From positions 1,494 to 65,493 of the forward strand of contig CAMYMN010000005.1 of assembly GCA_947259395.1 (NCBI GenBank): a DNA stretch of 64,000 bases, written 5' to 3'. Each line of letters starts with the position of its first letter. The stretch's first letter is position 1. The DNA is from an uncultured Gammaproteobacteria bacterium (GTDB lineage Bacteria; Pseudomonadota; Gammaproteobacteria; Arenicellales; JAANXG01). This document shows, piece by piece, positions 3,857 to 57,111 of this stretch. The position numbers and the translations under genes are program-made. The notes under the pieces are model-generated. The model was given only the letters and a program-made list of their open reading frames with translations. It was not told the origin of the DNA and did not search any database.

Positions 3857-4801
3857 TTGAATACCGTTATTAATATCGCCGGTCCCATCTTTGGCATCGG
3901 TCTGTTGGGTTATGTTGCCGCCCGGCGGGGCTGGTTTTCGGCCAAAGCCGCCGAAGGGCTGGCGCTCTTTGTTTTTGATTGGGCGGTACCGATCATGCTG
4001 GTGCGGGTGTTCGCCTCCGCCCCTCTGCCGGAGAGTTTCCCGTGGAAACTATTGGCCGCCTTCTATGTGCCGGCCTGCTTTTTTTACGCGTTGGGCATGT
4101 TTGTCGCCAACAGATACTTCCAACGCCACTACCTCGATCAAGTTATCACTGGCTTTGCCTATACGTTTGGAAACTCGGTATTGCTTGGCTTACCGTTGAT
4201 ACTGCTGACGTTCGGTGAGGCGGGCACGGTTCCGTTTTTCATCTTGTTGTCTTTGCATGGATTATCGTATTTGTCCGCAACAACCATCTTGATGGAATTG
4301 GGCCGCAACCGCGCACAATCGATTACCAAGCTGATCTCCGGGACCGTGAAGGGATTCATCAGCAATCCGATCATCCTTGGCCTGATTACCGGCCTGATAC
4401 TCAATCAACTACAGATCACGCTCCCCGGCCCACTCGACAAGATCGCCGAATATATGCAAATGGCGGTCATGCCCTGCGCACTATTTTCGCTGGGTGCCGC
4501 ATTGAATGCATATGGCATCGTGGGTCAGTTGAGCCAATCCGTGGTTGCGGTTTTGGTCAAAAACATCGCTTTTCCCGCGCTCGTGTGGGTGCTGTCGGTG
4601 TATGTACTCGAACTGCCGACGGTGTGGGCGATGATCGCAACACTGCTGGCGGCGCAACCTGCCGGCATAAATATCTATTTGTTTGCACAGCGCTATCAGG
4701 CCGCCCAAGCCTTGGCAACCACCACGGTTTTTCTGTCTAACGTGGTGGGCATCGCGACGCTCACGGTGTTACTTTTGATATTCGAAAAGATTGGTTGGTA
4801 G
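3857..4801 (+). CDS. AEC (auxin efflux carrier) family permease
   Basis: TTG start. About 10 predicted TM helices with a two-half layout. The N-terminus MNTVINIAGPIFGIGLLGY and overall composition match the AEC/membrane transport protein family. Confidence 0.8.
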   Translation: MNTVINIAGPIFGIGLLGYVAARRGWFSAKAAEGLALFVFDWAVPIMLVRVFASAPLPESFPWKLLAAFYVPACFFYALGMFVANRYFQRHYLDQVITGFAYTFGNSVLLGLPLILLTFGEAGTVPFFILLSLHGLSYLSATTILMELGRNRAQSITKLISGTVKGFISNPIILGLITGLILNQLQITLPGPLDKIAEYMQMAVMPCALFSLGAALNAYGIVGQLSQSVVAVLVKNIAFPALVWVLSVYVLELPTVWAMIATLLAAQPAGINIYLFAQRYQAAQALATTTVFLSNVVGIATLTVLLLIFEKIGW

Positions 4802-4844
4802 AAAAAGTAACGACACATCGCTTGCATAGCGTTTACCCCGTGTT

Positions 4845-6170
4845 TCATGTCAACCATGCGTAGAGATGCAGCAATATGGCGCTGAGTATTAACATGAACA
4901 AACAATAACTCAGATTCCAGCGGAAAAACCGCCAACTCTCTATCCCGTAACGCCCCTGTATCGTGAGATGCGTAGCAGAAAGTGGACTGCTGGCAACGCC
5001 TATCCCCCAGGTCATGAGAAACACCATCGCCAATAGCGTTGGATCCGGATGGATGGGCGTCAACCACGTGGCCACGGCAGTCACCGAGATGATCGGGTGT
5101 ATACCCATCGCCGCCAGACCAACCATCCCTATCAGGCTTATGGTCGCAGTGGTTCCGGTGAACGCCGCAAAGGGAAGGCGGTCATCGAAGCTGGCGAACA
5201 CACTCGACAGCCCGACGGCCAACACCCCTGCAGCAAGAAATAACAGTAACTCCACGGACATCTCCGGGAGGTGCAGGTTAACGTGTTGGCGCACTTCCGC
5301 TAACGCCCGGCGACAACCGCGGCGGTGCCCGAAAACGACAAACGTGAGCAGCGGGGAAAGCAGGCTGATGACCGTTAATACCGACCAATGCGGTAGAAAA
5401 ACGTGGGTGAGTAACACACAAGCCGCCAACAGGCCAGGTAGCCAAAGGCTCTGAAAATGGATCGGATAGCCACTGAATGCGGCCAGGCGTGAAGGATCGG
5501 TAACCAAGGCTTCAGCGTAGGTGTACGCCAGACCGGCGAGCGCCAAGGGCAGACCGACGGCAACCAGAATCGGCAACTCCGCCCCCGGCGAGTAGGTCAA
5601 CACCACGGCCATCCCTGCGAAGAATGTTGACCACAGCGCCGCAGAGGAAAATCCGCGAGACACGAGAATTGCGGTGCGCTTGTCGAACGTGCCTTGCCGG
5701 GCAAGACGATCACCGATGATCACCACCGCAGACAAATTGATAGCAGCACCGAACAGATGGATCCCAACGAGCGTGCGAAGATAGGCGTGTCCACCACGCG
5801 GCGGCGCCTCTTTCTGACTGGCATCGGGCATACTCACCAGTCGCAGGAAGCTCACCGCGGCCAACATCGACAGCAGCGCATGGTTCTGATCGATCAACGC
5901 CACAACATCCACCGGAGCACCGTTGTACCAACCCCAGAACAGACCTACCAAGCCCAAGGACGCTAGGACCCCAACCTGTACACGCTGCCGGCGCGGCGTG
6001 CGGACCCAGAGCAACACACCCGCCAGCCACGCCGACAACCCGGACGGCCAGGCTGGGAACACGGGCCACACGCCATGAATGACCGCAAACACGATCATCA
6101 ACGCCAGCAAAGGACCGGCGAGGATTCTGTAGGTATACATCAAATGAAGACGCTCACGCCGCAGGTCCAA
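4845..6170 (-). CDS. Polytopic integral membrane protein, function unknown
   Basis: 441 aa, almost entirely hydrophobic helices with positive-inside loops. No family-specific motif recognised. Confidence 0.7.
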   Translation of the reverse strand: MDLRRERLHLMYTYRILAGPLLALMIVFAVIHGVWPVFPAWPSGLSAWLAGVLLWVRTPRRQRVQVGVLASLGLVGLFWGWYNGAPVDVVALIDQNHALLSMLAAVSFLRLVSMPDASQKEAPPRGGHAYLRTLVGIHLFGAAINLSAVVIIGDRLARQGTFDKRTAILVSRGFSSAALWSTFFAGMAVVLTYSPGAELPILVAVGLPLALAGLAYTYAEALVTDPSRLAAFSGYPIHFQSLWLPGLLAACVLLTHVFLPHWSVLTVISLLSPLLTFVVFGHRRGCRRALAEVRQHVNLHLPEMSVELLLFLAAGVLAVGLSSVFASFDDRLPFAAFTGTTATISLIGMVGLAAMGIHPIISVTAVATWLTPIHPDPTLLAMVFLMTWGIGVASSPLSATHLTIQGRYGIESWRFFRWNLSYCLFMLILSAILLHLYAWLT

Positions 6171-6363: not shown

Positions 6364-9300
6364 CTAGGTGTTCTTGGGGTGGGCTTTGTTGACACGACCG
6401 GAGGTTGTTGTGTCCGGTTTCCTAGGATTTTGGGCGTGGTCGAAGACCGACAACGAATCCAAGGCCTGATGCAAAATAGTCACCGCCTGGTTGCGTTCTT
6501 CGGTAGACATCGCATGCATATTAAGATCAAGATTTAAGTTGGCGTGATGTTCACGGATGAAATGATGGTCATCGCGAAGATTGTCATGTAAATCCACCAC
6601 CTGATACGTGACAATCGGGTAGGCAATGCCTTTTACGTTGATCTCGCCATGCTTCTCGCAGTGGATCTGGTCTTTGACGAGTGCATAGGTCTCATAGGAG
6701 ATGAGAATCCCACCAGGTGTTGCTGCGGACTCTAGCCGCGCAGCAAGATTCACACCGCCGCCAATAATCGTGTAATCCATCCGATCTTCACTGCCAAAAT
6801 TACCGACTGTGCAGAATCCGGTGTTTATACCGGTCCTGCAACGCAATGGATTACCGACACCTGAGGCCCGCCATACATCCTGTAGTTCGTGCATCCTTTT
6901 GCGCATTGCAATTGCCATTTTGACGCATGCGAGCGCGTCTTCTTTGATGCCCCGACTTTCCGGATCGCCAAAGAATATAACGATGGCGTCACCCACATAT
7001 TTATCGATCGTGGCGCCGTGCGCCAAAGCGATTTGGGACATCTCCGTAAGATACTGATTCAGTAATTCGGTTAGCTCCTCGGACTCCAATCGGTCTGCGG
7101 TTTCCGTAAATCCTACAATATCCGAGAAAAAGATCGTCAGTTTCTTACGCTGGCTAGCAAGCTTGACCTCTTGACTACCGCGAAATATTGAGTCATACAC
7201 TTGTGGCGATAAGTATTTCGCCAGTTGATTGGATAACTGCTCGAGAGAATTCGATTTTTGGGCAAGCTCTGCCTCGCGCTGTTTTAGTTCTGTGACCTCA
7301 GAGTAGACGGCTACCGTGCCGCCGTCTTCCGTTTTGCGTTCGCTAACCAGAATCCAACGATCGTCAGCCCGGCATTGCAGGTGGGGTTCGTCGCTCGGCT
7401 CGCGGTGACGCGCTAAGCGTTCTTCGAGCCACTCCTCAACACGGTTCTGTGCGTCCTTGATGTACCCGCGTTCAGCGGCATAGCGCACAATGTCTTCAAA
7501 GGTCATGCCGGGGGTGATCTCCTCGGTACCTCCGGGATACAACAGCGCTTGATACTTGCTGTTGCACACCACCAGGCGGTCTTGACTGTCATACAGCGAG
7601 AAACCTTCGGAGATACTCTCGATCGCATCCATTAATCGGCGGCGAGTCTCGCGAATTTCCACGAGGTTCGATTTCTGAACCTCGATCGCCGTGTCGCGGA
7701 ACACGCCGAGCGCCTGGGCCATGCGACCGATCTCATCGCTGCGTTCCCGGAACGGAATATCAACCGACGTATCGCCTGCCGCTAGATCGGCCATAGCTTC
7801 GGTGATGCTCTCCAGTGGCCTGACAATACGGGGCCCAACGTAGTACAGGATGACGAACAGAGCACCGGTCACGCTTGCAGCCGTTATCAGCATCATAATC
7901 AGCTTGCCATATTCAATCGTTTCCGCGGCGCGGACTGCGGCCTCATCGCTACCTTGCTGAGCAGCCTTTACCAGTTCTGCAACCTGCTCGCTGAGCCGGA
8001 TAGAAAGCACGCGGCTAGCTTTCAACGACCGCTGGGCGACTGCGGTCTGGTCCAATTCCGCGTGACGCAATTCAAAAATGTTTCCGTCGGCCCGGCCGAC
8101 ATCGATAAGCGCCTGCGGCACCCTTCGCAGCACACCTCCGCCCACGGAATCGGGAATCTGGAAGAGCGTCTTCTCCATCTGCCCTGCGGCGGCAATAAAG
8201 CGTTCACGAACCGGTTGCAGCATAGTCGCGTCCCTCACCCCAGCCGCCTCGGCAAGCAATCCCGCCGCAAGATTGCCTTCGGCTCGCAGGGTAAGCAGCG
8301 TATGCAGGGTGTTGGCGCCGCCCTCGATGAGATTGTTGATCGACTCGGTACTTTGCGCGGTCAGTTCCTCGGCGTTCAACACCAGGTCAAACGTTGCGTC
8401 GTCCACGAGTGGAGCCAAGGTCGCAAGGACGGTCTCATGCGTTTCCTTAATTCTCTGCGTCATCCTATCACTGCTGACTTGTGCCGAACCCTGAAAAGAT
8501 GCGCTCCCCAATAATTCGCTTGCGCGTGCGTCAAAAATGTTTTTACCGCCAGTACCAAAGGCAAGCAAAGCGTCGATACCATGTTGAAGCTTCTGCCATT
8601 TTGGCAAATCGGTAAGTTGACGCAGATTGCTCCGAATTCGTGCCGCAACAGCAACGAACTGTTCGCGGATAGGCTGGATCAACACGGGATCCGAAACGTT
8701 TGCAGCTTCGGCAAGCAGTCCCGCGGCGAGGTTGGCTTCGGCATTGATCGTAAGTAAGGGATGAATCGTATTGATACCGCCTTGGATGAGGTCGGTGATA
8801 GCCTTGGTGCTTTGCGCCGTCACATCTTCGCCACTGATTATCAAATTGAATTGTGCGTCGTCGACCAATGGTTCTAAGGCATCAAGGAAACTCTGGTGCA
8901 CCTGAGCCAGAGAGGCTACTGCCGCCTCCCGTTGGGCCTCGAGCTGCAATCTGTTGTCAACGGCGGTATTGAGCGCGTTTAGCGCCGCCGATATTTTTTG
9001 GTGGGTTTCCGCAAGCTTGTTGACCTTATCTGTCGGAATCCCGCTTGTTTTGAGAGATCGCGTCAATTCAGCCAACTCCAACACCTTTTCTTCCAGATTT
9101 GCTTGTTCCGATATACGCTCATACCGGTCTGCACTGGCCATAAGAGCTGGCGCGATTGCTGAAATCTCGGCGCTTTTCTCGGCAAGTTTAAGGGAAGCCG
9201 CCATGGTGGGTACGGTTTCGGCAGTGATTCGCGACACCGAGCGATCAATCAGGAAGAAAACGTACACAGCGACTGCGCTTGCAACGGCGGTCAATGCAGC

Positions 9301-9417
9301 GAGCGTGCACAGTGTTAACAACAACTTCGTTTTTATGCCGAACAGAACGTTGCGCTCGTCTCGTTGCTCGGCTGCATCGTCGGCTGTCGAAGTAAACGGT
9401 GCGGGATTAGCATCCAT
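6364..9417 (-). CDS. Membrane-bound class III adenylate/guanylate cyclase: TM - duplicated helical periplasmic sensor - TM - HAMP - PAS - coiled coil - cyclase domain
   Basis: TM1 is LLLTLCTLAALTAVASAVAVYVFFL and TM2 is LIMMLITAASVTGALFVILYYV. HAMP: PLESITEAMADLAAGDTSVDIPFRERSDEIGRMAQAL. PAS-like: RLMDAIESISEGFSLYDSQDRLVVCNSKY. Cyclase core: LTIFFSDIVGFTE ... KYVGDAIVIFFGDPE ... RTGINTGFCTVGNFGS ... DYTIIGGGVNLAARLES. Confidence 0.9.
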   Translation of the reverse strand: MDANPAPFTSTADDAAEQRDERNVLFGIKTKLLLTLCTLAALTAVASAVAVYVFFLIDRSVSRITAETVPTMAASLKLAEKSAEISAIAPALMASADRYERISEQANLEEKVLELAELTRSLKTSGIPTDKVNKLAETHQKISAALNALNTAVDNRLQLEAQREAAVASLAQVHQSFLDALEPLVDDAQFNLIISGEDVTAQSTKAITDLIQGGINTIHPLLTINAEANLAAGLLAEAANVSDPVLIQPIREQFVAVAARIRSNLRQLTDLPKWQKLQHGIDALLAFGTGGKNIFDARASELLGSASFQGSAQVSSDRMTQRIKETHETVLATLAPLVDDATFDLVLNAEELTAQSTESINNLIEGGANTLHTLLTLRAEGNLAAGLLAEAAGVRDATMLQPVRERFIAAAGQMEKTLFQIPDSVGGGVLRRVPQALIDVGRADGNIFELRHAELDQTAVAQRSLKASRVLSIRLSEQVAELVKAAQQGSDEAAVRAAETIEYGKLIMMLITAASVTGALFVILYYVGPRIVRPLESITEAMADLAAGDTSVDIPFRERSDEIGRMAQALGVFRDTAIEVQKSNLVEIRETRRRLMDAIESISEGFSLYDSQDRLVVCNSKYQALLYPGGTEEITPGMTFEDIVRYAAERGYIKDAQNRVEEWLEERLARHREPSDEPHLQCRADDRWILVSERKTEDGGTVAVYSEVTELKQREAELAQKSNSLEQLSNQLAKYLSPQVYDSIFRGSQEVKLASQRKKLTIFFSDIVGFTETADRLESEELTELLNQYLTEMSQIALAHGATIDKYVGDAIVIFFGDPESRGIKEDALACVKMAIAMRKRMHELQDVWRASGVGNPLRCRTGINTGFCTVGNFGSEDRMDYTIIGGGVNLAARLESAATPGGILISYETYALVKDQIHCEKHGEINVKGIAYPIVTYQVVDLHDNLRDDHHFIREHHANLNLDLNMHAMSTEERNQAVTILHQALDSLSVFDHAQNPRKPDTTTSGRVNKAHPKNT
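8044..8898 (-). repeat. Intragenic tandem duplication (two units of about 130 aa) inside the cyclase sensor domain
   Basis: Unit A: ALEPLVDDAQFNLIISGEDVTAQSTKAITDLIQGGINTIHPLLTINAEANLAAGLLAEAANVSDPVLIQPIREQF...GKNIFDARASEL. Unit B: TLAPLVDDATFDLVLNAEELTAQSTESINNLIEGGANTLHTLLTLRAEGNLAAGLLAEAAGVRDATMLQPVRERF...DGNIFELRHAEL. The similarity is also visible at DNA level (about 8250-8300 versus 8705-8760). Coordinates are approximate. Confidence 0.75.
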
Positions 9418-9502: not shown

Positions 9503-10669
9503 TTAATCTGTTAATCGCTCCACGGCCTTAAAACGACCGTTCGGTTGGATGATTGTCAAGAAGACCTGATCCATCCCTTGATTGTCTTCCACGCTAAAGG
9601 TCAACGAGATCCCGTCGAGATCAAAATTCCCAGTTTTAGCGAACTGATCTAAAAACCCGCCGCGTTCCACGTTATCACCCATCGCCTCCAGTGCCAGTAT
9701 GGTCAAGCGGCCGACCATGTAACCTTCGAGTGAGACAAAACCGGGCTCGGCTTCCGGACTGTCGGCAAACAGGGCCTTGTGGTATCTGGCTACCAGCGGT
9801 TTATCGGTATCCTCCGGAAACGGCACGACTTGCGTGATGATAACTCCGTCTCCACTCTCACCCAGTTCTTTTGCGAGGGCCTTACTGCCGACAAAGGAAA
9901 CGTTCAGATACTTCGCTTGGATACCGGTCTTCTTTGCCAACTTGATGAACTCCGCACAGGGCTTATAGGCGCCGATCATGATTACGGCTTCGGGCTTACC
10001 CTTACGGATCGAAAGTACCGCTCTTTTCACGGCGATCGTATTGCGTTTGTAAGTACCTTCCGCCACCAGCGCCATGTTTCGCTTGTCGAGCGCGCGCTTG
10101 ACGCCGGTAAATCCAGCGCGTCCGTATGAATCATCTTGATACAGGATGGCAATGCGAGACACGCCCAAATCTTGAACTAGACGCTCGACCATTGCTTCTG
10201 TTTCTTGAAAGTATGAGGCCCGCATATTAATGACGGTCCGTTTATATGGGCTGCGAAGAAACTCGGCGCCGGTAAACGGTCCAATAAAGGGCACCCCCGC
10301 TTGGGAGGCGATCGGTTGGGCTGCTTTCGAGGTGGGAGTACCGACTTCTCCAATCAACGCAAACACCGCGTCTTGTTGAATTAAGCGTCTCGTATTGTCG
10401 ATGGCCTTATTCGGTTCATAACCATCGTCATAGCTAATGAGTTCCAGCTTGCGGCCATTTACGCCACCGGTTGCGTTCGCCTCCCTGAACGCGGCGACTA
10501 TCCCTTGACGCATACCCAAGCCAAGAGCCGCAGCGGGCCCTTCGAAGGCCGCGGATTGACCGAACAGGATTTTATCTTGATGGATACCCGGCTCAGCAAG
10601 GACGTTGGTAACCAAACATACGAGTATGCCGAACCCGGCGGCAACTGCATGAGTGTTGGACCGGCGCAT
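9503..10669 (-). CDS. Periplasmic binding protein, type 1 (LivK / branched-chain amino acid binding protein-like), no cognate ABC permease or ATPase nearby
   Basis: Signal peptide (AAGFGILVCLVTNVLA). The layout is typical of the Leu/Ile/Val-binding family (ILFGQSAAFEGPAAALG..., AVFALIGEVGTPT, ILYQDDSYGR). It lies 85 bp upstream of the cyclase on the same strand. Confidence 0.8.
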   Translation of the reverse strand: MRRSNTHAVAAGFGILVCLVTNVLAEPGIHQDKILFGQSAAFEGPAAALGLGMRQGIVAAFREANATGGVNGRKLELISYDDGYEPNKAIDNTRRLIQQDAVFALIGEVGTPTSKAAQPIASQAGVPFIGPFTGAEFLRSPYKRTVINMRASYFQETEAMVERLVQDLGVSRIAILYQDDSYGRAGFTGVKRALDKRNMALVAEGTYKRNTIAVKRAVLSIRKGKPEAVIMIGAYKPCAEFIKLAKKTGIQAKYLNVSFVGSKALAKELGESGDGVIITQVVPFPEDTDKPLVARYHKALFADSPEAEPGFVSLEGYMVGRLTILALEAMGDNVERGGFLDQFAKTGNFDLDGISLTFSVEDNQGMDQVFLTIIQPNGRFKAVERLTD

Positions 10670-41268: not shown

Positions 41269-42672
41269 TTACTCGAACTCTTCCACCTCATCGTAACAGG
41301 GTATGGACAACTCCGCGATAATATTGTCTGGTGAGCCCAAAGCGACATCAGCGGCAATCGCAGCGATCAACTTGGCTCTGGCTTCGTCACCCGCGTGTTT
41401 GCCGGGTGACACCAACGGTTCATAGAAGTTGTTGCGACAGGACCACCACTCATCGGACGGCACAAAATACCCCAGGGCGTCTCCGGTCAGCCCCAGAAAC
41501 AGCTTGTACTCGGCCGTCATCGCTTCCTTGATCGCGTGGGTGGTAGGGATTCCATCATCGAAACCGTTGCGGGTGAGCGATTCCCCCGGGAACGTGACGA
41601 CCTGGAGTTGATCTCCAAAGCGCAGATAGCCAAGCGTGGTGGGTATCTTGAGACGCAAACCTTCCCATTCGGCGTCGTAATCGAGACGATCGAAAAGATA
41701 AAATAGTCGGTAGAGCATACCTGTCATTTTGAGGTCCCAGGGTATCCTCGTTATCGTGATCTCGGAGGAGTCCGGGTTGATCAGGTCTTGATCGTCTCTT
41801 GAGTCGATCGCTGCCTGGGCAATCCGCTCACCGTATTCTTGGATGGTTTCACCGCGAAGGAGAGAGGGCTTGACGTCTCCAACCACCCCATTGGCAAATA
41901 TGGCTGTGCCGCCTAGTTGCTTCTCAAGATGATCCACGAGGTAGCCGCCAAAATCCCGGGATATGTATTCGACTTTGCCCAACAAATCCGGGTGGGCCGC
42001 GAAATTAAGCAGTGAACCGATGGTTGTCCCGGTATTAGTATCCTTGAATTCCACGAACGTGATTTCCTTATCAGTGAAACCCCACTTCCTGCGATTTCTA
42101 TTGCGATTTGGCCCAGTCGTTTTTGACACAAACATGTTCGCGGACGTAAGACTTTCATGTGCCTGGGTGACGGCTTCGATGGCTCCGGTCACTACGTCGT
42201 TCTTGTAGCCGTCCGGCACGCCGCCCCAGGGACCCTGCAGGTCGGGCGCGCTGTGGGTATGGGTGGCGCCCACAAAGTGGTTTTCTTTGGGTATCCCCAC
42301 GGCAGCCTCCGCACCCGTCACGATGCTGTCGATGATGCGGTTGCTGATGCCGACCGCATCTAGAATTGTCAAGGCGATGGTGATGGTTTTCTGGTTCGGG
42401 TTGCCCTCGTCTATCACCCATTGCAGCACCATAGATCGGGCGTAGATCTCCTCCTTCCCCGTGGGCAGGGTGGGATTCTCGCGATATCCCGTCGCCTGTA
42501 TGCGAGGGAAGTATCCGCCGATGTTGATGGGCAGGAAATGCTCCGCGGGTGTGATCTCTTTCTTTCCGAAGCCGGCCTGAAAGTTCACGGGCCACGCGAA
42601 CCCCGAGTACAACGTCAGGAAAATGCAAAGCCCCATTACACGGATCATTTTCATGATCATACTCCTATCCAT
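41269..42672 (-). CDS. Secreted hydrolase resembling neutral/alkaline non-lysosomal ceramidase N-terminal domain proteins
   Basis: Signal peptide. GATHTHSAPD and FANGVVGDVKPS resemble ceramidase-family active-site motifs. The assignment is from memory. Confidence 0.6.
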   Translation of the reverse strand: MDRSMIMKMIRVMGLCIFLTLYSGFAWPVNFQAGFGKKEITPAEHFLPINIGGYFPRIQATGYRENPTLPTGKEEIYARSMVLQWVIDEGNPNQKTITIALTILDAVGISNRIIDSIVTGAEAAVGIPKENHFVGATHTHSAPDLQGPWGGVPDGYKNDVVTGAIEAVTQAHESLTSANMFVSKTTGPNRNRNRRKWGFTDKEITFVEFKDTNTGTTIGSLLNFAAHPDLLGKVEYISRDFGGYLVDHLEKQLGGTAIFANGVVGDVKPSLLRGETIQEYGERIAQAAIDSRDDQDLINPDSSEITITRIPWDLKMTGMLYRLFYLFDRLDYDAEWEGLRLKIPTTLGYLRFGDQLQVVTFPGESLTRNGFDDGIPTTHAIKEAMTAEYKLFLGLTGDALGYFVPSDEWWSCRNNFYEPLVSPGKHAGDEARAKLIAAIAADVALGSPDNIIAELSIPCYDEVEEFE

Positions 42673-42779: not shown

Positions 42780-43359
42780 CAGCGACCAGCCTGACCCAGC
42801 AAGGCCGCGATTCTTCGTTGGTCTGATCGATAAAAGTACACCTTTTGTCAGGATCGCGGGGTGCCGCGGCGCACACAACGCCTTTGGGTGCGCCTCTTCC
42901 AGCGCCTCGCGGCAGGATTCCATGTTCCACATCCTGTTCATAGTTGCCAGCTTAGCCGGGACGAATCGTGGTTTCTGTGAAAAATTACCCAAATCCCGGC
43001 GGATTATTTACCGAGTATCACTATAACAGCCACCACCATGAGTTGGCGCAGCGCGTGAATAGGCCGTACCACAACCTAGCGAGACGGTCCCTTCCGAACA
43101 TCAATACCGTTTTCTAATCCATGATCGCGATAAGTTCTGCTCAGATGCACTCGACGACTCCATCACTCATCGAGGACGTAACGTGATCGAACCACGGTAT
43201 CGAAGTCCGCAGGCCAACTCGATCTGTGCGCGGGCCATCGGCTCGATGCGGCGAGCATATTTGGAACACGTGAATCCGCTCAATGAAATGCATTTTCGCA
43301 AACTTATCAAGGATTGGAAATGCTATTGCAACCGGGTCAAGTTACCTCATTTCACGTAG
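42780..43359 (+). pseudogene. 3' half of a DDE (rve-type) integrase/transposase gene, degenerate
   Basis: 43063-43359 translates to ...YRFLIHDRDKFCSDALDDSITHRGRNVIEPRYRSPQANSICARAIGSMRRAYLEHVNPLNEMHFRKLIKDWKCYCNRVKLPH. This follows the rve pattern LIrDRD ... SPWQNG.ER.IGtlRRE.LDH ... YYN..RPH. Upstream pieces (FFVGLIDKSTPFVRIAG) sit in other frames. No start codon, and several frameshifts. Confidence 0.6.
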
Positions 43360-46300
43360 GATAGTTTTCGCGGCGCGGAAATCACTTAGTTCGAGACCTT
43401 CTTCCCATCGGTCACACTGGTCGTTCAGAAGCTTCCGCGCCTCGCTGGTGCATCCCTGTGCCGCCAGACAGCGCGTCAGGGTACATGCGGCACGGAGTTC
43501 AAGCGCTTTCGAGTGCCGCGATTGCGCTTCAGACAGGGCTGATCGGAAGTCCGATTCCGCGAGGGACACCATCCGTGTATCCGTCGCCGTGTCCGACCAC
43601 GCCTCGCGGATCCGGTGCTCACCACGAAGTCTGTATAGCTCCGCCCGCCAGCAACGCTCCCCGGTCTCTTCCGTCAAGGCAAGCGCTTCTTCGACCACGC
43701 GCAAACCCCTGCCAGGCTGATTACCTTCGAGATAGACGTCACCGAGAAGTGCCATGAAATAAGGCAGAATCAGTCGCGTGCCGATACCGCGCCACTGCTC
43801 GATACCCTCCAGGACAGTGGCTTCGCCAGCGAAAGGATCATCCAACTTTGAAATCGCCCAGCCCAACAGCACGCGGCCCCATGCCCTCCCCTGCGTTACG
43901 GCCTGCGCTTCGGAGAGTTTAATGACTTCTTGCCCGACGGTCCGGACCAGCTCCGGCTCTAACCTCATCTGGTGCAGGGTCGCGAGATACAGCTTGGAGA
44001 ACACCACACTGTATGGGTGGTAGATGCTCTCCGCGACATTGACCGATTCGTATGCCGTGGACAACGCCTTATCGGGCATGCCCAGCGACCACAAAGTCAG
44101 CGCCAGCGTCGACAAACACACCACCCCGGGATCGGCGAAATACATGTAAGCAAGCGCGCTATGCGCCTTGGGGTCGTATATCTTTGCGCCTTGTTCCAAG
44201 TACTGCCGGGAAATCTGTAAATCGCCTTGCCAGTAGGCTGTGCCACCAAGACTCCGATAGGCCAGTAAGCATAAAGCCTGGTCGTTGGCCGACTCGGACA
44301 GCCGTCGTGCATGTTCGGCGAGTTCCCGCGCTTGACGAAGATCTCCCCGCGCTTGACTGAATATGTTCAGCCCGCACAGCACGGCAATCAGCTGCGGTGA
44401 ATCACCCAATTTGGCGCACAGCTCCTGCGCCCGCACCAGAACGCGCTCAGCTTCAGGAGATGCATATCCACGGGTTCGCACAACCGGACTACTGATCGCG
44501 ACCAACGCATTCAGCTCTTTTTGCAAGCGATCCGCGCCTTCCGGTAGATGGTGGATAAGTTCGAGCGCCCGGTTAAGATGCGTGACCGCTTCCTGGTTGG
44601 CCGATCGTTCGCTGCACCCCTTCCCCGCTGCCATGAGATACTCGATGGCCCTGTCGATGCGGCCGGCTTTCTCGAAATGATCAGCAAGTAGCTCGGGCTG
44701 GCGGGTCGCACCCTCGACGAACCGCCTTTCCAGAAAATCCGCGATCCGCGTGTGCATCAGACGCCGATCGGAACGAAGCAGAGACGAATAAGCTGCTTGC
44801 TGAATTAACACATGGTGGAAGGTATAGGTGTTCTCCGATCCCGATCGCCGCTGCGACAGGATGCCGAGGTGAACCAGGCGCTCGAGTCCCCGCGCCAGCG
44901 CCCCGGCATCACCTTGCCAAACGGCGCTGATCAGCGAGGATTCAAAACGTCGTCCAAGTACGGCGCACAGCATGGCAATTTCACGTTCCCAGGTCAGGTA
45001 GGTGAGCCGGGCCAGAAGCAAATCCTGCAGCGATGCGGGGATGGTCTCGGCCGTCATGGCGTGCCGCGCACCCGCGTCGGAGACTACCAGCCGCGTGAGT
45101 TCTTCAACATACAAAGGTACGCCATCGGCACGGTGTACGATCCGGTCGACGAGGGTGTCGGGTAGCGATACCTCTCCCGCGATGTCAGCGATCATCGCCC
45201 GTATCTCAGTCGACGTCATGGGTTGCAGTTCGATCCGGTACGTGCCTGCATAAGGCGGCCAGCGGTCGTGGTAACCGGTGCGAACACTCGCCAGAACCAT
45301 CACGCGGTGCTGCTCAATACGGGACAGAAGGAAAGAGACAAATTCCCGGGTTGACGGATCGATCCAGTGCACGTCCTCTATAATAAAGATAGTCGGTTGT
45401 TTACCGGCGAGCGCGACAACTACTTGCTGCAGCGCCACAAAGGTCTCGGTTTTTTGGGCATCGGGGGAAAGACGAAGCGGCGGGTACCGGTCCGAAGGTT
45501 CCAGACCAAGCAGCGAGGCAATCAGCGGAACAACCTTGTCAGTGGTCAGGCCGCTGTCCCGCAGTCCCGTTTCCAGCTTATCCATCCGCGCATCCGCATC
45601 GTCATCTTGACTGATAGCCAGATTACGCTGAATCGTTTCGATGACCGGGTACAGTGCGCTGTTCTCGGTGTGGGACCAGCATTGAACAATCAGCCGAAAA
45701 TGCGGGACAGACTCGAGCTGGCGTCTCATCTCCTGGATGAGACGTGATTTGCCGACACCCGCTTCTCCCGAAATCAGGACGACGGCATGCTGTCCGCTCT
45801 CAACCTGTTTCCACTTTATCCATAACTCGTGCATCTGCTCGTCGCGCCCGACCAATGCCGTTAATTGCTTCGGATGGGTGGCGACGAATCTGCTCTCCGG
45901 TGCCTTCGCTTCCAGTACGCGCCACGCCTGCACCGGCTCGGTGATACCTTTTAATTCATGCTTTCCCAGACTCTCGAACTTGAACAAATCACCCACAAGG
46001 TCTTTTGTCGAAGGCGACACCACTACAGTGTCCGGATTGGCGACGGCCTGAAGGCGGGCTGCCAGGTTCGGGGTCTCGCCGACCACACTTTGCTGTTCCA
46101 CCGAGTTATCGCTGATGATATCGCCGACCACCACAAGTCCGGTAGCAATGCCAATCCGGACGTGGAACGGGGCGCCGTGGGTAGCGGCAATCCGATTGTT
46201 GAGTTCCTGCATGGCGTCGATAATGCCCAGGGCCGCCCGGGCGCAACGTTCCGGATCGTTTTCATGCGACACTGGGTAGCCGAAGTAAGCAAGAATGCCG

Positions 46301-46719
46301 TCCCCCAAGTAGCGCGCAGAATACCCTCCGAACCGTCTGATCTCCTGCCCACACGTAGCCCGGTAAGCTCGAATTACGTCGCGCATATCTTCCGGGTCCA
46401 ACCGCGTGGACCATGCGGTGGAATCGACCAGATCGGAGAACAATACAGTGATTTGCCGGCGCTCGGCTTCGGGCGGAGAAGACCGCCTTCGGCGTGACGC
46501 TTCGTCAGAGCGCGTGCCAAAATCGGTATGGATTTGTTTTATCGCCCGGCAGAGTTTTTTTCGATGCCCTATGGACACGCCGAGTTCGGCAAGATCACCA
46601 TCTGTCAGGTCCGGCAGCTCTTCGAAACCAATGTTCTGCTCGACAAACCTGTCGGCATATTGCTCCAATCCAATCGAGCCGAGCCACTTTGTTATGTCGA
46701 ATTTATCATGCATCCGCAA
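43342..46719 (-). CDS. SAM (sterile alpha motif) domain - class III nucleotidyl cyclase - P-loop STAND NTPase - TPR repeat protein
   Basis: SAM-like: ITKWLGSIGLEQYADRFVEQNIGFEELPDLTDGDLAELGVSIGHRKKLCRAIKQI. Cyclase: ITVLFSDLVDSTAWS ... RYLGDGILAYFGYP ... RIGIATGLVVVGD ... VGETPNLAARLQ. Walker A VLISGEAGVGKSRL, Walker B TIFIIEDVHWID. About 500 aa of TPR-like helices follow. Confidence 0.9.
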   Translation of the reverse strand: MRMHDKFDITKWLGSIGLEQYADRFVEQNIGFEELPDLTDGDLAELGVSIGHRKKLCRAIKQIHTDFGTRSDEASRRRRSSPPEAERRQITVLFSDLVDSTAWSTRLDPEDMRDVIRAYRATCGQEIRRFGGYSARYLGDGILAYFGYPVSHENDPERCARAALGIIDAMQELNNRIAATHGAPFHVRIGIATGLVVVGDIISDNSVEQQSVVGETPNLAARLQAVANPDTVVVSPSTKDLVGDLFKFESLGKHELKGITEPVQAWRVLEAKAPESRFVATHPKQLTALVGRDEQMHELWIKWKQVESGQHAVVLISGEAGVGKSRLIQEMRRQLESVPHFRLIVQCWSHTENSALYPVIETIQRNLAISQDDDADARMDKLETGLRDSGLTTDKVVPLIASLLGLEPSDRYPPLRLSPDAQKTETFVALQQVVVALAGKQPTIFIIEDVHWIDPSTREFVSFLLSRIEQHRVMVLASVRTGYHDRWPPYAGTYRIELQPMTSTEIRAMIADIAGEVSLPDTLVDRIVHRADGVPLYVEELTRLVVSDAGARHAMTAETIPASLQDLLLARLTYLTWEREIAMLCAVLGRRFESSLISAVWQGDAGALARGLERLVHLGILSQRRSGSENTYTFHHVLIQQAAYSSLLRSDRRLMHTRIADFLERRFVEGATRQPELLADHFEKAGRIDRAIEYLMAAGKGCSERSANQEAVTHLNRALELIHHLPEGADRLQKELNALVAISSPVVRTRGYASPEAERVLVRAQELCAKLGDSPQLIAVLCGLNIFSQARGDLRQARELAEHARRLSESANDQALCLLAYRSLGGTAYWQGDLQISRQYLEQGAKIYDPKAHSALAYMYFADPGVVCLSTLALTLWSLGMPDKALSTAYESVNVAESIYHPYSVVFSKLYLATLHQMRLEPELVRTVGQEVIKLSEAQAVTQGRAWGRVLLGWAISKLDDPFAGEATVLEGIEQWRGIGTRLILPYFMALLGDVYLEGNQPGRGLRVVEEALALTEETGERCWRAELYRLRGEHRIREAWSDTATDTRMVSLAESDFRSALSEAQSRHSKALELRAACTLTRCLAAQGCTSEARKLLNDQCDRWEEGLELSDFRAAKTILREMR

Positions 46720-46857
46720 GCACCGGAGTTCGAGTCAGATATGCGGGTCCTGCGGAATCGTCGTAGTGCGCTATGAATTCCGCGAGCAACCCACTGCGAA
46801 ACCAGACCCCTACGCGACTTTGCCGGTGGCCTGATTATACCGTTTTGTGCGTAACCA

Positions 46858-48558
46858 CTACTGCCCCGACGTGCGGGGCAATTCACGTTCTGATTCGGCC
46901 TGAATCCGTTGACGCTCGGCCTGCGAGTTGCGTACGACTTGCGCCAAAACCTCGTCGTCCAGCCGTGTGAGTTCTGCCGCAGCTTCTTTGATAGCGACAT
47001 GTTCGACTGCTCGCGATACGGTTTCCGCTCTGGTTGCGCCACTTTTCGCTCCAAGAAAGGGTTTTATGAGTAAATACCCCACATCTCTTGCCGGCATGTA
47101 GCGAAGGAACCGTCGAATCAATCTAAACAGCTGAACCGGATAATGGCGAAGTTTATAAAGTAACAATCTACGTAGACCAGCACTGCGTTCGGAATGGATG
47201 ACCTCGCCTGGTAGACATGTGGGATCAATTTCTGAGCACTTGAAATACTTGTACCAATCGGCTTCGTCATCCACTAGACCGCGGTTTACGTATTCACGCC
47301 ATAGTGGCGTGCCGCGATACACACACAATCGATTGAAGCCGAAAGTGTCTAACCGTAGCTTGGACGCAAAATCGAACGTCGCCCGAAGATCTTCTACAGT
47401 TTCGTCCGGGCTTCCCACCACAAAGAACCCGTGCACAATTTCAATGCCCGCTTGTTTGGCATTAGTCACGGCAGTTTCCACTTCCTCCAGTGTTTGCTGT
47501 TTCTTGAGTCGATCGAGTACCTTTTGGCTACCACTCTCCAAACCAAACATGATCATTCGGCAATGGGCCCTGGCCATGTCAGGGAACAGATGCTGGGCTA
47601 CTGAGTCGACCCTACCTTCGCAGCTCCATTGAATGGTTACGTTGGCATCGTTGATACCCTGGCAAATCGCCTTGATCCGTTTAGGTTGCAGCAGAAAATG
47701 GTCGTCGACAAAACAAACTGACCCGTAACCATGTTCTTGTAAGTGTTTGAATTCATCCACGACGTGCTGCGCGCTTCTTGAGCGCCATTTACCTTCGTTA
47801 AAGATCGGAATGTCGCAGAATACGCAGGGCCAGGGACAACCGCGTGATGTTTGCATCGTGGTAAATCGATCCATGGATAACACGGCGGGCACATCGAGCG
47901 GCATCGATTCGATGAAGTCCAATGGCAGGCTTTCGCGGTCAGGGAATGGCCACTGGTCGAGTTTTCTTTCGATGGGCCGATTGGGATTGTGAATGACCTT
48001 GTCATCCTTGGCCCACGTCACACCGCCGACTCCAGACGGATCATCTAAGCTTTCTATGAGATCGAGGATCAACTGTTCCCCATCACCCCGGCAGACGAAG
48101 TCGACCTCGGGGCATTGATGCTTAACTAACTGCGCGTTGAGTGAAGTAAACACACCACCAAACGCCAATTTCACCTTATCATTCGCGGCGCGAATCTGAC
48201 GCGCCAGGACTTTAGCGTAGGGATAGCTCGTTGTGCTGAGGAAGCTCAATCCAACAAGTGCCGGCTTGTGCCTGCGAATTTCTTCAATGATCACCTCATT
48301 GGGTGTTTCGGGATTCGCTTGGTCAAACATCACACACTCGTGCCCGGCACGCTTCAAGACTGCAGAGAGTGACATGATCCCGATGGGGGGGAATCCCATC
48401 ACCTGTAGGCGCCCATTCTTAGCGCGCGCTTTTGTTGGCAGCGCATAGAATTGGGGATCGCGGATATGGACCAGGAATATCAGCAAAGTCTCCTCCTCTG
48501 CAATGATCGTCGGGACTCTAGGCCTGTTTTCGTTGAGGTTCCCGCCTGAGTATCGCAC
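46858..48558 (-). CDS. B12-binding-domain radical SAM (class B) enzyme, substrate unknown
   Basis: N-terminal cobalamin-binding-type Rossmann region (LLIFLVHI ... GIMSLSAVLKRAGHECVMFD). Radical SAM cluster motif TSRGCPWPCVFCDIP. A probable alternative start is the TTG at 48486, preceded by GAGGAGGA. Confidence 0.85.
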   Translation of the reverse strand: MRYSGGNLNENRPRVPTIIAEEETLLIFLVHIRDPQFYALPTKARAKNGRLQVMGFPPIGIMSLSAVLKRAGHECVMFDQANPETPNEVIIEEIRRHKPALVGLSFLSTTSYPYAKVLARQIRAANDKVKLAFGGVFTSLNAQLVKHQCPEVDFVCRGDGEQLILDLIESLDDPSGVGGVTWAKDDKVIHNPNRPIERKLDQWPFPDRESLPLDFIESMPLDVPAVLSMDRFTTMQTSRGCPWPCVFCDIPIFNEGKWRSRSAQHVVDEFKHLQEHGYGSVCFVDDHFLLQPKRIKAICQGINDANVTIQWSCEGRVDSVAQHLFPDMARAHCRMIMFGLESGSQKVLDRLKKQQTLEEVETAVTNAKQAGIEIVHGFFVVGSPDETVEDLRATFDFASKLRLDTFGFNRLCVYRGTPLWREYVNRGLVDDEADWYKYFKCSEIDPTCLPGEVIHSERSAGLRRLLLYKLRHYPVQLFRLIRRFLRYMPARDVGYLLIKPFLGAKSGATRAETVSRAVEHVAIKEAAAELTRLDDEVLAQVVRNSQAERQRIQAESERELPRTSGQ

Positions 48559-48649: not shown

Positions 48650-49170
48650 CCCAGTCTAACAGACAGGATTCACGTGCCACATGGCAAGGACCGGCGCGAT
48701 GATCCTGATTCATCACTGCGGCAGTGCGCTCAACCTAAACATTCGTATTCGCATGTTGTTTCTTGATGGGGTGTACGTCATAGTCGAGGAAGACTTGGTA
48801 TTTTTCGTTATGCCCGGTCGCCGGACCTCCAGGTGTTGGAATTACTCGTCCACACAATTCAGTCAGAGGTTTGCCGTTAACTACAGCGCCACGTGCGAGC
48901 AGGCATGTTTTGATGAGCGGAATCTGGCCCAAAATTTGCGTCGTTCTTTGGTGGAACTAAGCACGGCGAAAAACACGAGCTTAAGCAGAGGTTCCAGCTT
49001 TGAAAAGACTACTGATGCAACCCGCTGAGATGTGGGTCTCAAGAGCAAATGGGACGAATTGGAATCGCGGGGACTGGAGGTGTCCACGGCGAATTAGCAT
49101 TTAGAAGCCGAAATCGCGAACAAATCCAAGACTTGTCATCGCTGTGGAGTTCGTTACGATACGGAACCTA
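48650..49170 (+). pseudogene. IS91-family transposase fragment (C-terminal third), with frameshifts and stops
   Basis: GAMILIHHCGSALNLNIRIRMLFLDGVYV matches the conserved IS91 block FGSALNLNxHFHMLFLDGVY. The continuation (PDLQVLELLVHTIQSEV) is in another frame and is interrupted by stops. Confidence 0.6.
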
Positions 49171-49712
49171 TGCGCGAACTCGCTGTTCTGTTCCTTCACC
49201 TCGTTATGATTACTGCCCGGCTACTCGGACCAGGTTGGGCACGGTCGATCATCGCTGAATCTCTGTTGGTCAAACATCAACTCCTGATCATCAGTCGATC
49301 GCACCAACGAGGACCGAATCTCCGAACAATTGATCGCATTATCGCCGGGCTGTGCGCTCTGCCGATGCGCCCGAGCCATGTGGTCCGTTCGGCCATCATT
49401 TTGAAGCCTTCGACAATCCTTGGATTCCATAGATTGATGGTGAAACGCAAATATCCGCTTCTCTTCGCCCCCATCCACCGAGGAAAAACAGGATCCAAGG
49501 GTCCCACGCAAGAACCGATTGACGCTAATGTCGCGATGAAACACGGCAATCCGATCTGGGTTTGTCAACGTATCGCGGTGCAGATTTCATTGGCGTTTGT
49601 ATTGTTATAGATAAGGATCTCGTTCGCCGCGTTCTGTCTCGCCACTATCAACCCTTATCTGGTGAAAGGGGCATCCTGGCTCACCACCATGTCATTCTAT
49701 GAAATGTCATAG
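49170..49712 (+). pseudogene. 5' half of a DDE (rve-type) integrase/transposase gene, same family as the 42780-43359 remnant
   Basis: IIAESLLVKHQLLIISRSHQRGPNLRTIDRIIAGL ... ILKPSTILGFHRLMVKRKYPLLF ... GSKGPTQEPIDANVAMKHGNPIWVCQRIAVQISLAF. After a stop at 49610 it continues out of frame as DKDLVRRVLSRHYQP and GASWLTT. No catalytic DDE core follows. Confidence 0.6.
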
Positions 49713-49752: not shown

Positions 49753-50412
49753 ATGGACGTGCACAAGACGTTGAAGAACATCCCGCTATTTTCCGGCCTC
49801 AAGGAATCGGACTTGAAGACTATTTCGAGCCACGCCATTACCCGCAACTATCCCAAACACACAATTGTGATCACCGAAGGAGACGTCACCAATACTTTGT
49901 ACGTCATTCATTCAGGCAAGGTAAAGGTATTCCTGAATGATGAACATGGGAAAGAAATCATTCTCTCCAGGTTAGGACCGAATGAGTACTTCGGCGAGTT
50001 GTCATTGCTTGACGGTGAAGCCCGTTCTGCTTCGGTCATGACCCTGGAGCCCACAATCGTCGCGGTGATCTCGAAAGCAGACTTCGATGCATATCTCATT
50101 AACAATCCCACTGTTGCACTCAAGCTGTTGGAGACCCTCACACAAAAGATCCGGCATCTGACGGAGAACGTCAGAGGCCTGGCATTAATGGACGTCTATG
50201 GCCGGGTTGCACGGGTGTTGCTCGACATGGCCAAAGAAGCAAACGGCAAATTAGTAATCGACGAGAAACTCTCACAGCAGGAAATCGCCAAAATGGTGGG
50301 CGCTTCCCGCGAGATGGTGAGCCGTATTCTCAAGGACCTGTCAACGGGCGGATATATCGATGTCAAGCGGAACCATATCGTCATCAACCAAAAACTCCCA
50401 CCGGCTTGGTGA
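49753..50412 (+). CDS. Crp/Fnr-family cyclic-nucleotide-binding transcriptional regulator
   Basis: The cNMP-binding domain has FGELSLLDGEARSASV (the Glu and Arg-Ser-Ala residues that contact cAMP in CRP). C-terminal HTH: QQEIAKMVGASREMVSRILKDL. Confidence 0.85.
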   Translation: MDVHKTLKNIPLFSGLKESDLKTISSHAITRNYPKHTIVITEGDVTNTLYVIHSGKVKVFLNDEHGKEIILSRLGPNEYFGELSLLDGEARSASVMTLEPTIVAVISKADFDAYLINNPTVALKLLETLTQKIRHLTENVRGLALMDVYGRVARVLLDMAKEANGKLVIDEKLSQQEIAKMVGASREMVSRILKDLSTGGYIDVKRNHIVINQKLPPAW

Positions 50413-55920: not shown

Positions 55921-57111
55921 TTAAGAACTTTCCCGTTTCTCGTTCAACATTCCCACCTCGTTTTTCAACAGTGCGGCCTTGTCGGTGTTTTCCCAGCTAA
56001 AGTCGGGGTCGTCGCGGCCAAAATGCCCGTATGATGCGGTCTTGAGATAGATCGGCCGCTTCAAGTCCAACTCTTTTAATATCGCCGCTGGTGTGAGCGG
56101 AAAATGTTTCCTAACCAACACGGTGATCCAGCCTTCGGGGAATTTATTGGTGCCAAAGCAATCCACGTTGATCGACACCGGCTCAGCGACGCCGATGGCG
56201 TAGGCCAGTTGTATTTCACACCGATCGGCCATGTCTGCCGCCACAACGTTCTTGGCGATATACCTGGCGGCGTAGGCGGCCGACCGGTCCACTTTACTGG
56301 GGTCTTTCCCGGAGAAACACCCGCCACCATGTCTTCCGATTCCACCATAACTATCAACGATGATCTTCCTACCGGTGCAACCGGCATCGGCGTAAGGCCC
56401 GCCCCTAATGAAGAAGCCCGTCGGGTTGACGTAGAACTTGGTATCCTCATCTATCCAGTCCTTGGCTATCGGATTTATCACTTTCTCGATCACCGCCGTC
56501 TTGATCTCATCGTGTTCGACTCCGGCATCATGTTGCGTGGATATCAAGATGGTGTCGGCGCGTTGGGGCTTGCCCGCCTCGTCGTACTCGATGGACACTT
56601 GGGACTTTCCATCCGGCCGCAGCCAACTCAGTTCCTCGTTCTTTCTTGTTTGGGCGAGTCGTCTCGTCAGCTTATGGGCAAGCATGACAGGAAGCGGCAT
56701 GAATTCCGGGGTCTCGTTGCTCGCATAGCCGAACATCATTCCCTGATCGCCGGCCCCTTGCTCTTTGTGCAGGCCCTGTCCTTCGCTCACGCCTATCGAT
56801 ATATCCGGTGACTGCTCGGTGATCTGCGTCCATACCGAACAGGTCTCCCATTCGATACCGTAATGCGAATCCGTGTATCCGATCTGTTTAATGACATCCC
56901 GGGTGATATGCGGAACGTCGACCCATCCCTTCGTTGTCATTTCACCAAACACCATGACGCCGCCGTTCTTCGCTGCGGCCTCAATGGCCACCCTGCTATT
57001 CACATCCTGCCTGAGGGCCTCGTCAAGAATCGCGTCGCTGATCTGGTCGCACATCTTGTCGGGATGTCCTTCGGTAACTGATTCTGAAGTTATGATCCGC
57101 TTTTCAGCCAT
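55921..57111 (-). CDS. metK: S-adenosylmethionine synthetase
   Basis: Hallmark motifs: [53 protein letters not shown]. Confidence 0.97.

Follow-up and report, generated by a model that had tools for sequence, protein, structure and literature searches.

Adjacent genes for a SAM-domain STAND cyclase and a B12-binding radical SAM enzyme in an uncultured gammaproteobacterium are probably independent of each other

We analysed a stretch of 64,000 nucleotides (the window) from an uncultured Gammaproteobacteria bacterium (contig CAMYMN010000005.1 of assembly GCA_947259395.1). In it, a gene for a large protein composed of a sterile-alpha-motif (SAM) domain, a class III cyclase domain, a STAND nucleotide-binding module and TPR-like repeats follows, on the same strand, a gene for a class B (B12-binding) radical S-adenosylmethionine enzyme (rSAM). 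The original prediction, made from the letters alone, took the two as the cargo of a mobile island and as a possible two-gene system. Both genes were accurately described, yet, judging from sequence comparisons, they do not appear to form a real system. Instead, the two genes are likely to be independent, the large one being a stand-alone STAND-gated signalling cyclase, and they were probably placed side by side only in this genome by a rearrangement associated with insertion sequences (IS). As a two-gene system the pair has no significance, its adjacency being a local accident. The features concerned are the following.

43342 to 46719, minus strand: gene for the SAM / class III cyclase / STAND NTPase / TPR protein, an open reading frame (ORF) of 1125 aa from TTG 46719
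46720 to 46857, minus strand: spacer of 138 bp between the large gene and the rSAM gene
46858 to 48486, minus strand: gene for the class B (B12-binding) rSAM, 542 aa from TTG 48486 (maximal ORF 46858 to 48558, 566 aa)

The evidence for independence comes from gene neighbourhoods, examined from both sides. Relatives of the rSAM gene were found at no fewer than 550 loci in a scan of the GTDB representatives, one genome per species, and the best 80 of these loci, 74-90% identical to the rSAM of the window, were fetched with up to 8 kb per side. None of the 80 has a cyclase-STAND gene beside the rSAM orthologue, with at least 1 kb of sequence available downstream of the rSAM gene in 71 of them. 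One of these loci, L047, encodes a distant ATPase-TPR protein (24% identity) that has no cyclase. In the other direction, we compared 82 loci of the large protein, namely its two nearest database relatives (66% and 63% identity) and 80 metagenome loci (62-34%), and an rSAM relative was found at none of them; the room upstream of the gene was at least 500 bp in 64 loci and at least 1.8 kb in 41. The three closest orthologues of the large protein, L002 (66%), L001 (63%) and L083 (62%), all lack the rSAM gene, and in L002 the upstream gene is unrelated to it. As the genes do not co-occur in either direction, the pair is not conserved. The neighbourhood check that had been proposed for the two-gene system thus went against it, and this candidate was rejected.

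Flanking ORFs were also clustered across the 82 loci, and beyond synteny within the same lineage no recurrent neighbour of the large-protein family emerged. The window and a close orthologue have only one neighbour in common, which lies downstream of the large gene:

41269 to 42672, minus strand: gene for a Ceramidase_alk-like secreted hydrolase (Pfam Ceramidase_alk, 41.9 bits)

In L002, a ceramidase-like gene (4737-6029) that is 56% identical to it lies 50 bp downstream of the orthologue; it is absent from L001 and L083. Since L002 has this gene in common with the window, it is the ancestral neighbour of the large gene, on the side that faces away from the rSAM. The loci of the closest rSAM relatives, which belong to Arenicellales and other gammaproteobacterial metagenome-assembled genomes (MAGs; 84-90% identity), have nothing else in common with the window.

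Several points weigh against independence. Only 41 of the 82 family loci extend far enough upstream to accommodate a complete rSAM gene, just three close orthologues of the large protein (62-66%) are available for comparison, and the other 79 loci, at 34-41% identity, may be paralogues. Moreover, Nitrospira dominates the 80 rSAM loci. The spacer has no recognisable terminator, so the two genes are possibly co-transcribed in this genome, and we consider a lineage-specific functional link between them conceivable, if very unlikely. Sequencing runs with traces of the sequence were limited to two sediment metagenomes, with shares of 0.07 and 0.05, and no RNA run was among them.

The spacer itself contains a 9-bp hairpin that overlaps the rSAM stop codon and lacks a U-tract, and a TATAAT hexamer directly past that stop. 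Scans recognised neither a promoter nor a terminator in the 138 bp, the fold z-score (-1.7) was non-significant, and no CRP box was present; CRP boxes are not enriched in the window either. These observations bear on the idea that the two genes became a functional module in this lineage, in which the cyclase senses a product or substrate of the rSAM, or the rSAM acts on a pathway controlled by the cyclase, within an operon created by IS activity. The common strand, the short gap and the unrecognised terminator are consistent with such a module, as are a Crp-type receptor for cyclic nucleotides (cyclic nucleoside monophosphates, cNMP) 1.2 kb away and the homology of the cyclase-ATPase-TPR body to the 'TOMM system kinase/cyclase fusion protein', whose name refers to a natural-product context. 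However, co-occurrence was zero across the 80 and 82 loci, the nearest orthologues of either gene are flanked by different genes, the spacer has no CRP box, and the rSAM is far too conserved and widespread as a solitary gene for an accessory role. We therefore give a module of this kind very little credence.

The behaviour of the rSAM family is central to this judgement. The start of the gene is most likely TTG 48486, which lies behind a putative Shine-Dalgarno sequence, GAGGAGGAG, and gives a protein of 542 aa like the closest homologues. The prediction of a 566-aa class B rSAM located 138 bp upstream of the large gene on the same strand was confirmed, with the following parts:

48067 to 48390, minus strand: B12-binding domain (Pfam, 75 bits)
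47365 to 47853, minus strand: radical SAM core (Pfam Radical_SAM, 86.7 bits)
47815 to 47838, minus strand: CPWPCVFC (CxxxCxxC) motif, residues 241-248 of the 566-aa ORF

A subfamily assignment had been suggested as a further check. The two domains were found as expected, but no named NCBIfam subfamily, such as HpnJ, BchE, PhpK or HpnR, could be attached, all 33 matches being far below their cutoffs; the best scores were 155 bits for HpnJ (cutoff 577.6) and 151 bits for BchE (cutoff 481). The window rSAM has the N-terminal B12-binding Rossmann domain and the CxxxCxxC core in common with the class B enzymes HpnJ, BchE and PhpK, but it scores 3-6 fold below each of the named cutoffs and belongs to a tight family of its own. 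The nearest solved structure is AprD4 (6fd2), which matches over the core only (E 4e-26), and a literature search on the subfamily gave nothing useful.

The 80 rSAM loci are mostly from Nitrospirota, with others from Methylomirabilota, Verrucomicrobiota, Acidobacteriota, Myxococcota and Gammaproteobacteria. The rSAM is 78% identical to the Nitrospira copies, as against 57% for MetK in the 24 genome pairs concerned. A library clustered at 50% identity contained a single full-length representative, at 62%, the next full-length relatives following at about 42% and then at about 30-37%. By sequence, the rSAM thus appears to be a stand-alone (monocistronic) gene of a sharply bounded, slowly evolving orthologous group. 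Its neighbours recur only within lineages (sucCD and metK/ahcY in Nitrospira, an Abhydrolase_3 gene in Gammaproteobacteria), and clustering of flanking ORFs together with a Pfam scan of the neighbours at the 80 loci revealed no neighbour that recurs across phyla. With respect to the large protein, the rSAM is an unrelated orphan. Across five or more phyla the rSAM family has changed more slowly than MetK, which makes it a reasonable target for the discovery of a function, separate from the question of the pair.

With regard to metK, the window has a copy at 55921-57111 (minus strand), 7.4 kb from the rSAM gene. Of the Nitrospira loci, 24 have metK inside the 8 kb of flanking sequence fetched with the rSAM, and ahcY accompanies it in 23 of the 24; in L014 (7914-10439), metK and ahcY span 1.3-3.8 kb downstream of the rSAM. 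The proximity of metK and rSAM may be a coincidence or a remnant of a linkage to S-adenosylmethionine supply.

How the two genes came together is suggested by the remains of mobile elements around them, beyond which a gene for a cNMP-binding regulator is located:

43063 to 43344, plus strand: C-terminal part of an rve (integrase-core) transposase, tail to tail with the stop codon of the large gene
48684 to 48788, plus strand: fragment of an IS91/ISCR-type transposase within ORF 48681-49028 (NCBIfam NF052416, ISCR clade Ia)
49170 to 49610, plus strand: N-terminal part of an rve transposase, matching residues 21-124 of a 338-aa Bradyrhizobium protein (E 2e-7)
49753 to 50412, plus strand: gene for a Crp/Fnr-family cNMP-binding transcription factor (Pfam cNMP_binding, 88.7 bits, plus HTH_Crp_2)

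The left fragment has tblastn matches to plasmid genes annotated as 'integrase core domain-containing protein' (E to 2e-13) and corresponds to residues 212-301 of that Bradyrhizobium protein of 338 aa (E 2e-13), with a weak rve_3 match (E 0.07); its end coincides exactly with the large gene's stop codon. As it sits between genes that are 50 bp apart in L002, it represents an insertion between old neighbours and not the edge of a cargo. The right rve fragment gave no match in Pfam or NCBIfam, and the ISCR fragment matches positions 176-210 of the 509 positions of its model (E 7.4e-7). We rejected the possibility that a single IS was split by insertion of the pair: on the plus strand the C-terminal fragment lies on the left and the N-terminal one on the right, which is the reversed order. 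The simplest reading is that the bracketing rve fragments are two decayed copies.

The ISCR/IS91 fragment lies directly upstream of the rSAM gene in divergent orientation. Rolling-circle elements of the ISCR/IS91 type can carry adjacent DNA, and such an element could explain the relocation of the rSAM gene. The pair had been placed inside an IS-scarred island. The scars are real, in the form of the three fragments, while the island is not apparent: the window shows no compositional step, and no tRNA, Rfam element or internal repeat was found in it.

The Crp gene had been described as directly beside the pair. About 1.2 kb of transposase debris lies between it and the rSAM gene, and the two genes are divergent; a Crp homologue was found at 1 of the 82 large-protein loci, and the close orthologues have no Crp gene next to them. 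Its score against the NCBIfam CRP model is 146.6 bits, below the cutoff of 266.

For the large protein, the predicted four-part organisation was borne out by Pfam and by an AlphaFold2 model, and all the motifs that had been quoted were found where they were expected:

46531 to 46707, minus strand: SAM domain, residues 5-63 (Pfam SAM_1 56.1 bits, for which the cutoff is 23 bits; SAM_2 46.6 bits)
45937 to 46461, minus strand: class III cyclase homology domain, residues 87-261 (Pfam Guanylate_cyc 76.7 bits)
44770 to 45855, minus strand: STAND nucleotide-binding oligomerisation module, residues ~289-650 (Pfam AAA_16 78.2 bits)
43345 to 44769, minus strand: C-terminal TPR-like helical repeat (sensor) region, residues ~650-1125, ~475 aa (Pfam TPR_12 37.9 bits)

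Translation most likely starts at ATG 46713, which would give 1123 aa and match the length of the database copy. The gene is intact, since homologues align across 99-100% of its length. Among the PDB sequence matches of the SAM domain are the SAM domains of SHANK3 and Caskin (E to 7e-9), and the cyclase domain, with the motifs VLFSDLVDST (residues 92-101) and YLGDGILAYFG (residues 137-147), aligns with Cya2 (2w01), CyaB (3r5g) and CyaC (1wc0). In the STAND module, the AAA_16 match spans residues 289-475, with nSTAND1 and NB-ARC narrowly under their cutoffs. It contains a Walker A motif (GEAGVGKS, 318-325), a Walker B motif (IFIIEDVHWID, 444-454), a GxP motif within DGVPLYVEE (532-540) and an invariant His636 within FHHVLIQ. 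In the repeat region TPR_12 is above its cutoff, and TPR_MalT, TPR_2 and TPR_10 match weakly. Pfam gave no GerE/LuxR or other helix-turn-helix (HTH) match at E ≤ 0.01 in the 1125-aa protein, and no match to a kinase domain.

The AlphaFold2 model, built on an alignment of 44 sequences, has a mean predicted local distance difference test score (pLDDT) of 85.3 and a predicted TM-score (pTM) of 0.71. In it, residues 9-67 form a five-helix bundle; next come an alpha/beta cyclase fold, then a nucleotide-binding oligomerisation domain (NOD) and, between about residues 650 and 1124, an unbroken array of helical hairpins for which pLDDT mostly exceeds 90. Foldseek ranks 6mfv, the crystal structure of a TPR-sensor STAND protein, first among the PDB entries (761 aligned columns, E 4.4e-13, about 13% identity), and Apaf-1 and Avs3 are also among the matches. 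For the cyclase domain, comparison by Foldseek with CyaC, Cya2 and CyaB gave target-normalised TM-scores of 0.8-0.9 and root-mean-square deviations of about 2 Å.

As had been predicted for the metal-binding contexts of the cyclase, D96 and D140 are intact: they are invariant in 44 of 44 family members and align with the metal-binding Asp residues of Cya2, CyaB and CyaC. The transition-state residues N218 and R222 (GETPNLAARL) are likewise invariant in all 44, and so are the STAND positions G321, G323, K324, S325, E448, D449, R480, G533, P535 and H636. We infer by analogy that G533 and P535 of the GxP motif and H636 of the winged helix may have their usual STAND roles. Because the catalytic and NTPase residues are invariant, both enzymatic modules look functional.

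Canonical class III cyclases have a Lys/Asp or Lys/Thr pair for ATP and a pair of the Glu/Cys type for GTP. The corresponding positions of the large protein, fixed by alignment with Cya2, which has Glu at the first of them, and with CyaB, which has Lys there, are R136 and S211, which is not a canonical pair. Hence, of the cyclase residues whose presence had been set out for checking, those for the transition state are present and the substrate-specifying pair deviates. The family itself varies in the 44-member alignment, with R in 18, K in 14, Q in 6 and E in 3 at the first position and A in 22, S in 7, T in 6 and D in 4 at the second. Since the Arg136/Ser211 pair is non-canonical, the nucleotide product cannot be predicted from sequence.

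In the original prediction no described system was known to combine these parts. The large protein is nevertheless an ordinary member of a very large family whose architecture has already been described. At E ≤ 1e-10 there were at least 7,997 family matches among the 8,000 candidates scored, which was the maximum scored, so that the family size is a lower bound. SAM_1 was present in 108 of the 120 best matches, with the same SAM-cyclase-AAA_16 content; in the remaining 12 the SAM domain was absent, and 8 of these 12 have a zinc ribbon instead (PF13240/PF12773). The relatives in TIGR03903 have a protein kinase at the N-terminal position, and it appears from these collinear relatives that the N-terminal module is exchangeable between SAM, zinc ribbon and kinase.

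Proteobacterial proteins with SAM_1, Guanylate_cyc and AAA_16 (plus TPR) have the same domain order and length (about 1110-1150 aa) as the large protein, align with it over the full length at 34-66% identity and have the same invariant catalytic and NTPase residues. At least 219 records of plasmids, megaplasmids or chromids carry full-length homologues with 37-39% identity and 99% coverage; Sinorhizobium, Rhizobium and Bradyrhizobium are among the hosts, and up to 4 copies of the family occur per rhizobial plasmid or megaplasmid record. Compared with these rhizobial members, the window copy comes from an uncultured sediment bacterium, with an adjacent rSAM that is closest to copies from Arenicellales MAGs, and it has the Arg/Ser pair where the family varies between R, K, Q and E at the first position and A, S, T and D at the second. 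The database annotation of the homologues is generic ('AAA family ATPase' or 'adenylate/guanylate cyclase domain-containing protein'). In the literature searched we found no functionally characterised member of the SAM-bearing family. The combination of SAM, cyclase and AAA_16 was noted in root-nodule bacteria by Seshadri et al. in 2015 (PMC4653623).

What is new here is therefore one further member of a known and widespread architecture, together with a conservation of the rSAM that is independent of this locus. The window adds one intact example of an abundant, multi-copy family of STAND-controlled cyclases. Biochemical work on a single member, whichever it is, would be informative for thousands of genes, several of them in each rhizobial genome. 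Follow-up is worthwhile for the conservation of the rSAM family and for the ligand and product of the cyclase family, neither of which depends on this locus.

The suggestion that the pair is a ligand-triggered generator of a second messenger does not hold for the two genes as a unit, but for the large protein alone it is the best mechanistic reading, by analogy with better-studied STAND proteins. PH0952 (6mfv) and MalT have a NOD and a TPR-type sensor in common with the large protein, and the same switching logic may be expected; in these two proteins the output is a DNA-binding domain, whereas in the large protein it would be the N-terminal cyclase together with the SAM domain. At rest, the STAND core would be ADP-bound, monomeric and locked by the TPR sensor arm. 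A cytoplasmic ligand could bind to the TPR region and free the lock, after which ADP would be exchanged for ATP and the STAND core would multimerise in an ATP-dependent manner. Class III cyclase domains are catalytic only as dimers, and multimerisation would unite the N-terminal cyclase domains as catalytic dimers that produce a cyclic nucleotide. The SAM domain might serve as a second surface for self-association or for docking of a partner. The cyclic nucleotide would then feed the general cNMP network and be read by receptors like the Crp-type regulator, without a dedicated genetic linkage. The ADP-locked resting state and multimerisation upon induction are taken from work on PH0952 and MalT (PMC6468293, PMC10427625).

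A similar organisation is found in the mycobacterial proteins Rv0386, Rv1358 and Rv2488c, in which a class III cyclase at the N-terminus likewise precedes a P-loop ATPase and a helical region. The substrate-specifying residues of Rv0386 are non-canonical. Unlike this type, the large protein has no C-terminal LuxR/GerE HTH domain and has an N-terminal SAM domain and a long TPR array.

The likeness to Avs3 and Apaf-1 raises the question of whether the large protein is an antiviral sensor of the NLR/Avs kind, in which the TPR arm recognises a phage protein and the cyclase emits a Pycsar-like signal for a cNMP-binding reader. In favour of this, the cyclase domain is recognised by the PADLOC models for PycC (best E 5e-19), and the cNMP domain encoded by the Crp gene by those for Pycsar effectors. 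IS scars are close by, and in L001 and L083 a CHAT-domain protein of 1870 aa and a trypsin-like protease are encoded about 1.8 kb from the orthologue. However, the PADLOC matches are limited to generic cyclase and cNMP-binding domains, without any Avs or other STAND model at E ≤ 1e-3, and the check for defence genes that had been proposed thus gave no match beyond general domain similarity. Whereas Pycsar pairs its cyclase with an adjacent TIR or transmembrane effector, the cNMP-binding protein closest to the cyclase of the window is a transcription factor of the HTH type, about 3 kb away, which the relatives do not have as a conserved neighbour. Avs proteins carry an effector of the nuclease, protease, Sir2 or TIR type, whereas the effector of the large protein is a cyclase; a 2026 survey of STAND phage sensors makes no mention of cyclase effectors (PMC12803255). 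Furthermore, the large-protein family has no recurrent partner gene, its presence in up to 4 copies per rhizobial replicon fits sensory signalling, and its neighbours in the window are metabolic and transport genes. On balance, we regard an antiviral role as unlikely.

Genes for CHAT and trypsin-like proteases are typical of conflict systems. The regions concerned are 12739-19543 in L001 and 13163-18775 in L083; the CHAT-domain protein is a caspase-like protease, and in L001 its gene is followed by one for a Trypsin_2 protease. Neither the CHAT-domain nor the Trypsin_2 gene is present in the window.

The TOMM fusion proteins suggest another link between the two genes, namely that the rSAM matures a ribosomally synthesised and post-translationally modified peptide (RiPP) and that the large protein regulates the cluster, in parallel to the TOMM kinase/cyclase fusions. 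The cyclase-ATPase-TPR body of the large protein aligns end to end with TIGR03903 (positions 282-1265 of 1267; 527.3 bits), and the rSAM has weak matches to ApyD (134 bits) and rSAM_ocin_1 (84 bits). All these scores are far under the respective cutoffs of 705.75, 750 and 281.85, in the case of TIGR03903 because the large protein has no kinase domain, a SAM domain replacing the N-terminal kinase of the fusion proteins. No genes for a TOMM precursor, a cyclodehydratase or a transporter were found adjoining the pair, and the rSAM orthologues are solitary and 76-90% identical across phyla, unlike RiPP tailoring enzymes. A RiPP pathway is thus extremely improbable.

One may also imagine that the SAM-cyclase-STAND-TPR proteins are NLR-like receptors which act through SAM polymerisation and produce a non-canonical cyclic nucleotide, and that the copy in the window was placed by an IS behind the rSAM gene, co-transcribed with it and newly coupled to it. 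The Arg/Ser specificity pair would fit a non-canonical cyclic nucleotide. As a whole this scenario seems to us quite improbable, and we prefer independent genes with a stand-alone signalling cyclase.

The rest of the window is ordinary chromosome, with genes for DnaJ, MetK, an aminotransferase, an epimerase, an extracytoplasmic function (ECF) sigma factor, several ATP-binding cassette (ABC) transporters, PHO4/PhoU and an M28 peptidase. The near neighbours of the pair are the ceramidase-like hydrolase, a phosphoesterase, the IS fragments, the Crp gene and an ABC transporter. A further cyclase is encoded at some distance from the pair:

6364 to 9417, minus strand: second class III cyclase, 1017 aa, with TorS-type sensor, HAMP and PAS domains

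Given this second cyclase in the window, the organism has several cyclases that feed cNMP signalling. A gene for a periplasmic binding protein (9503-10669, minus strand) adjoins the second cyclase.

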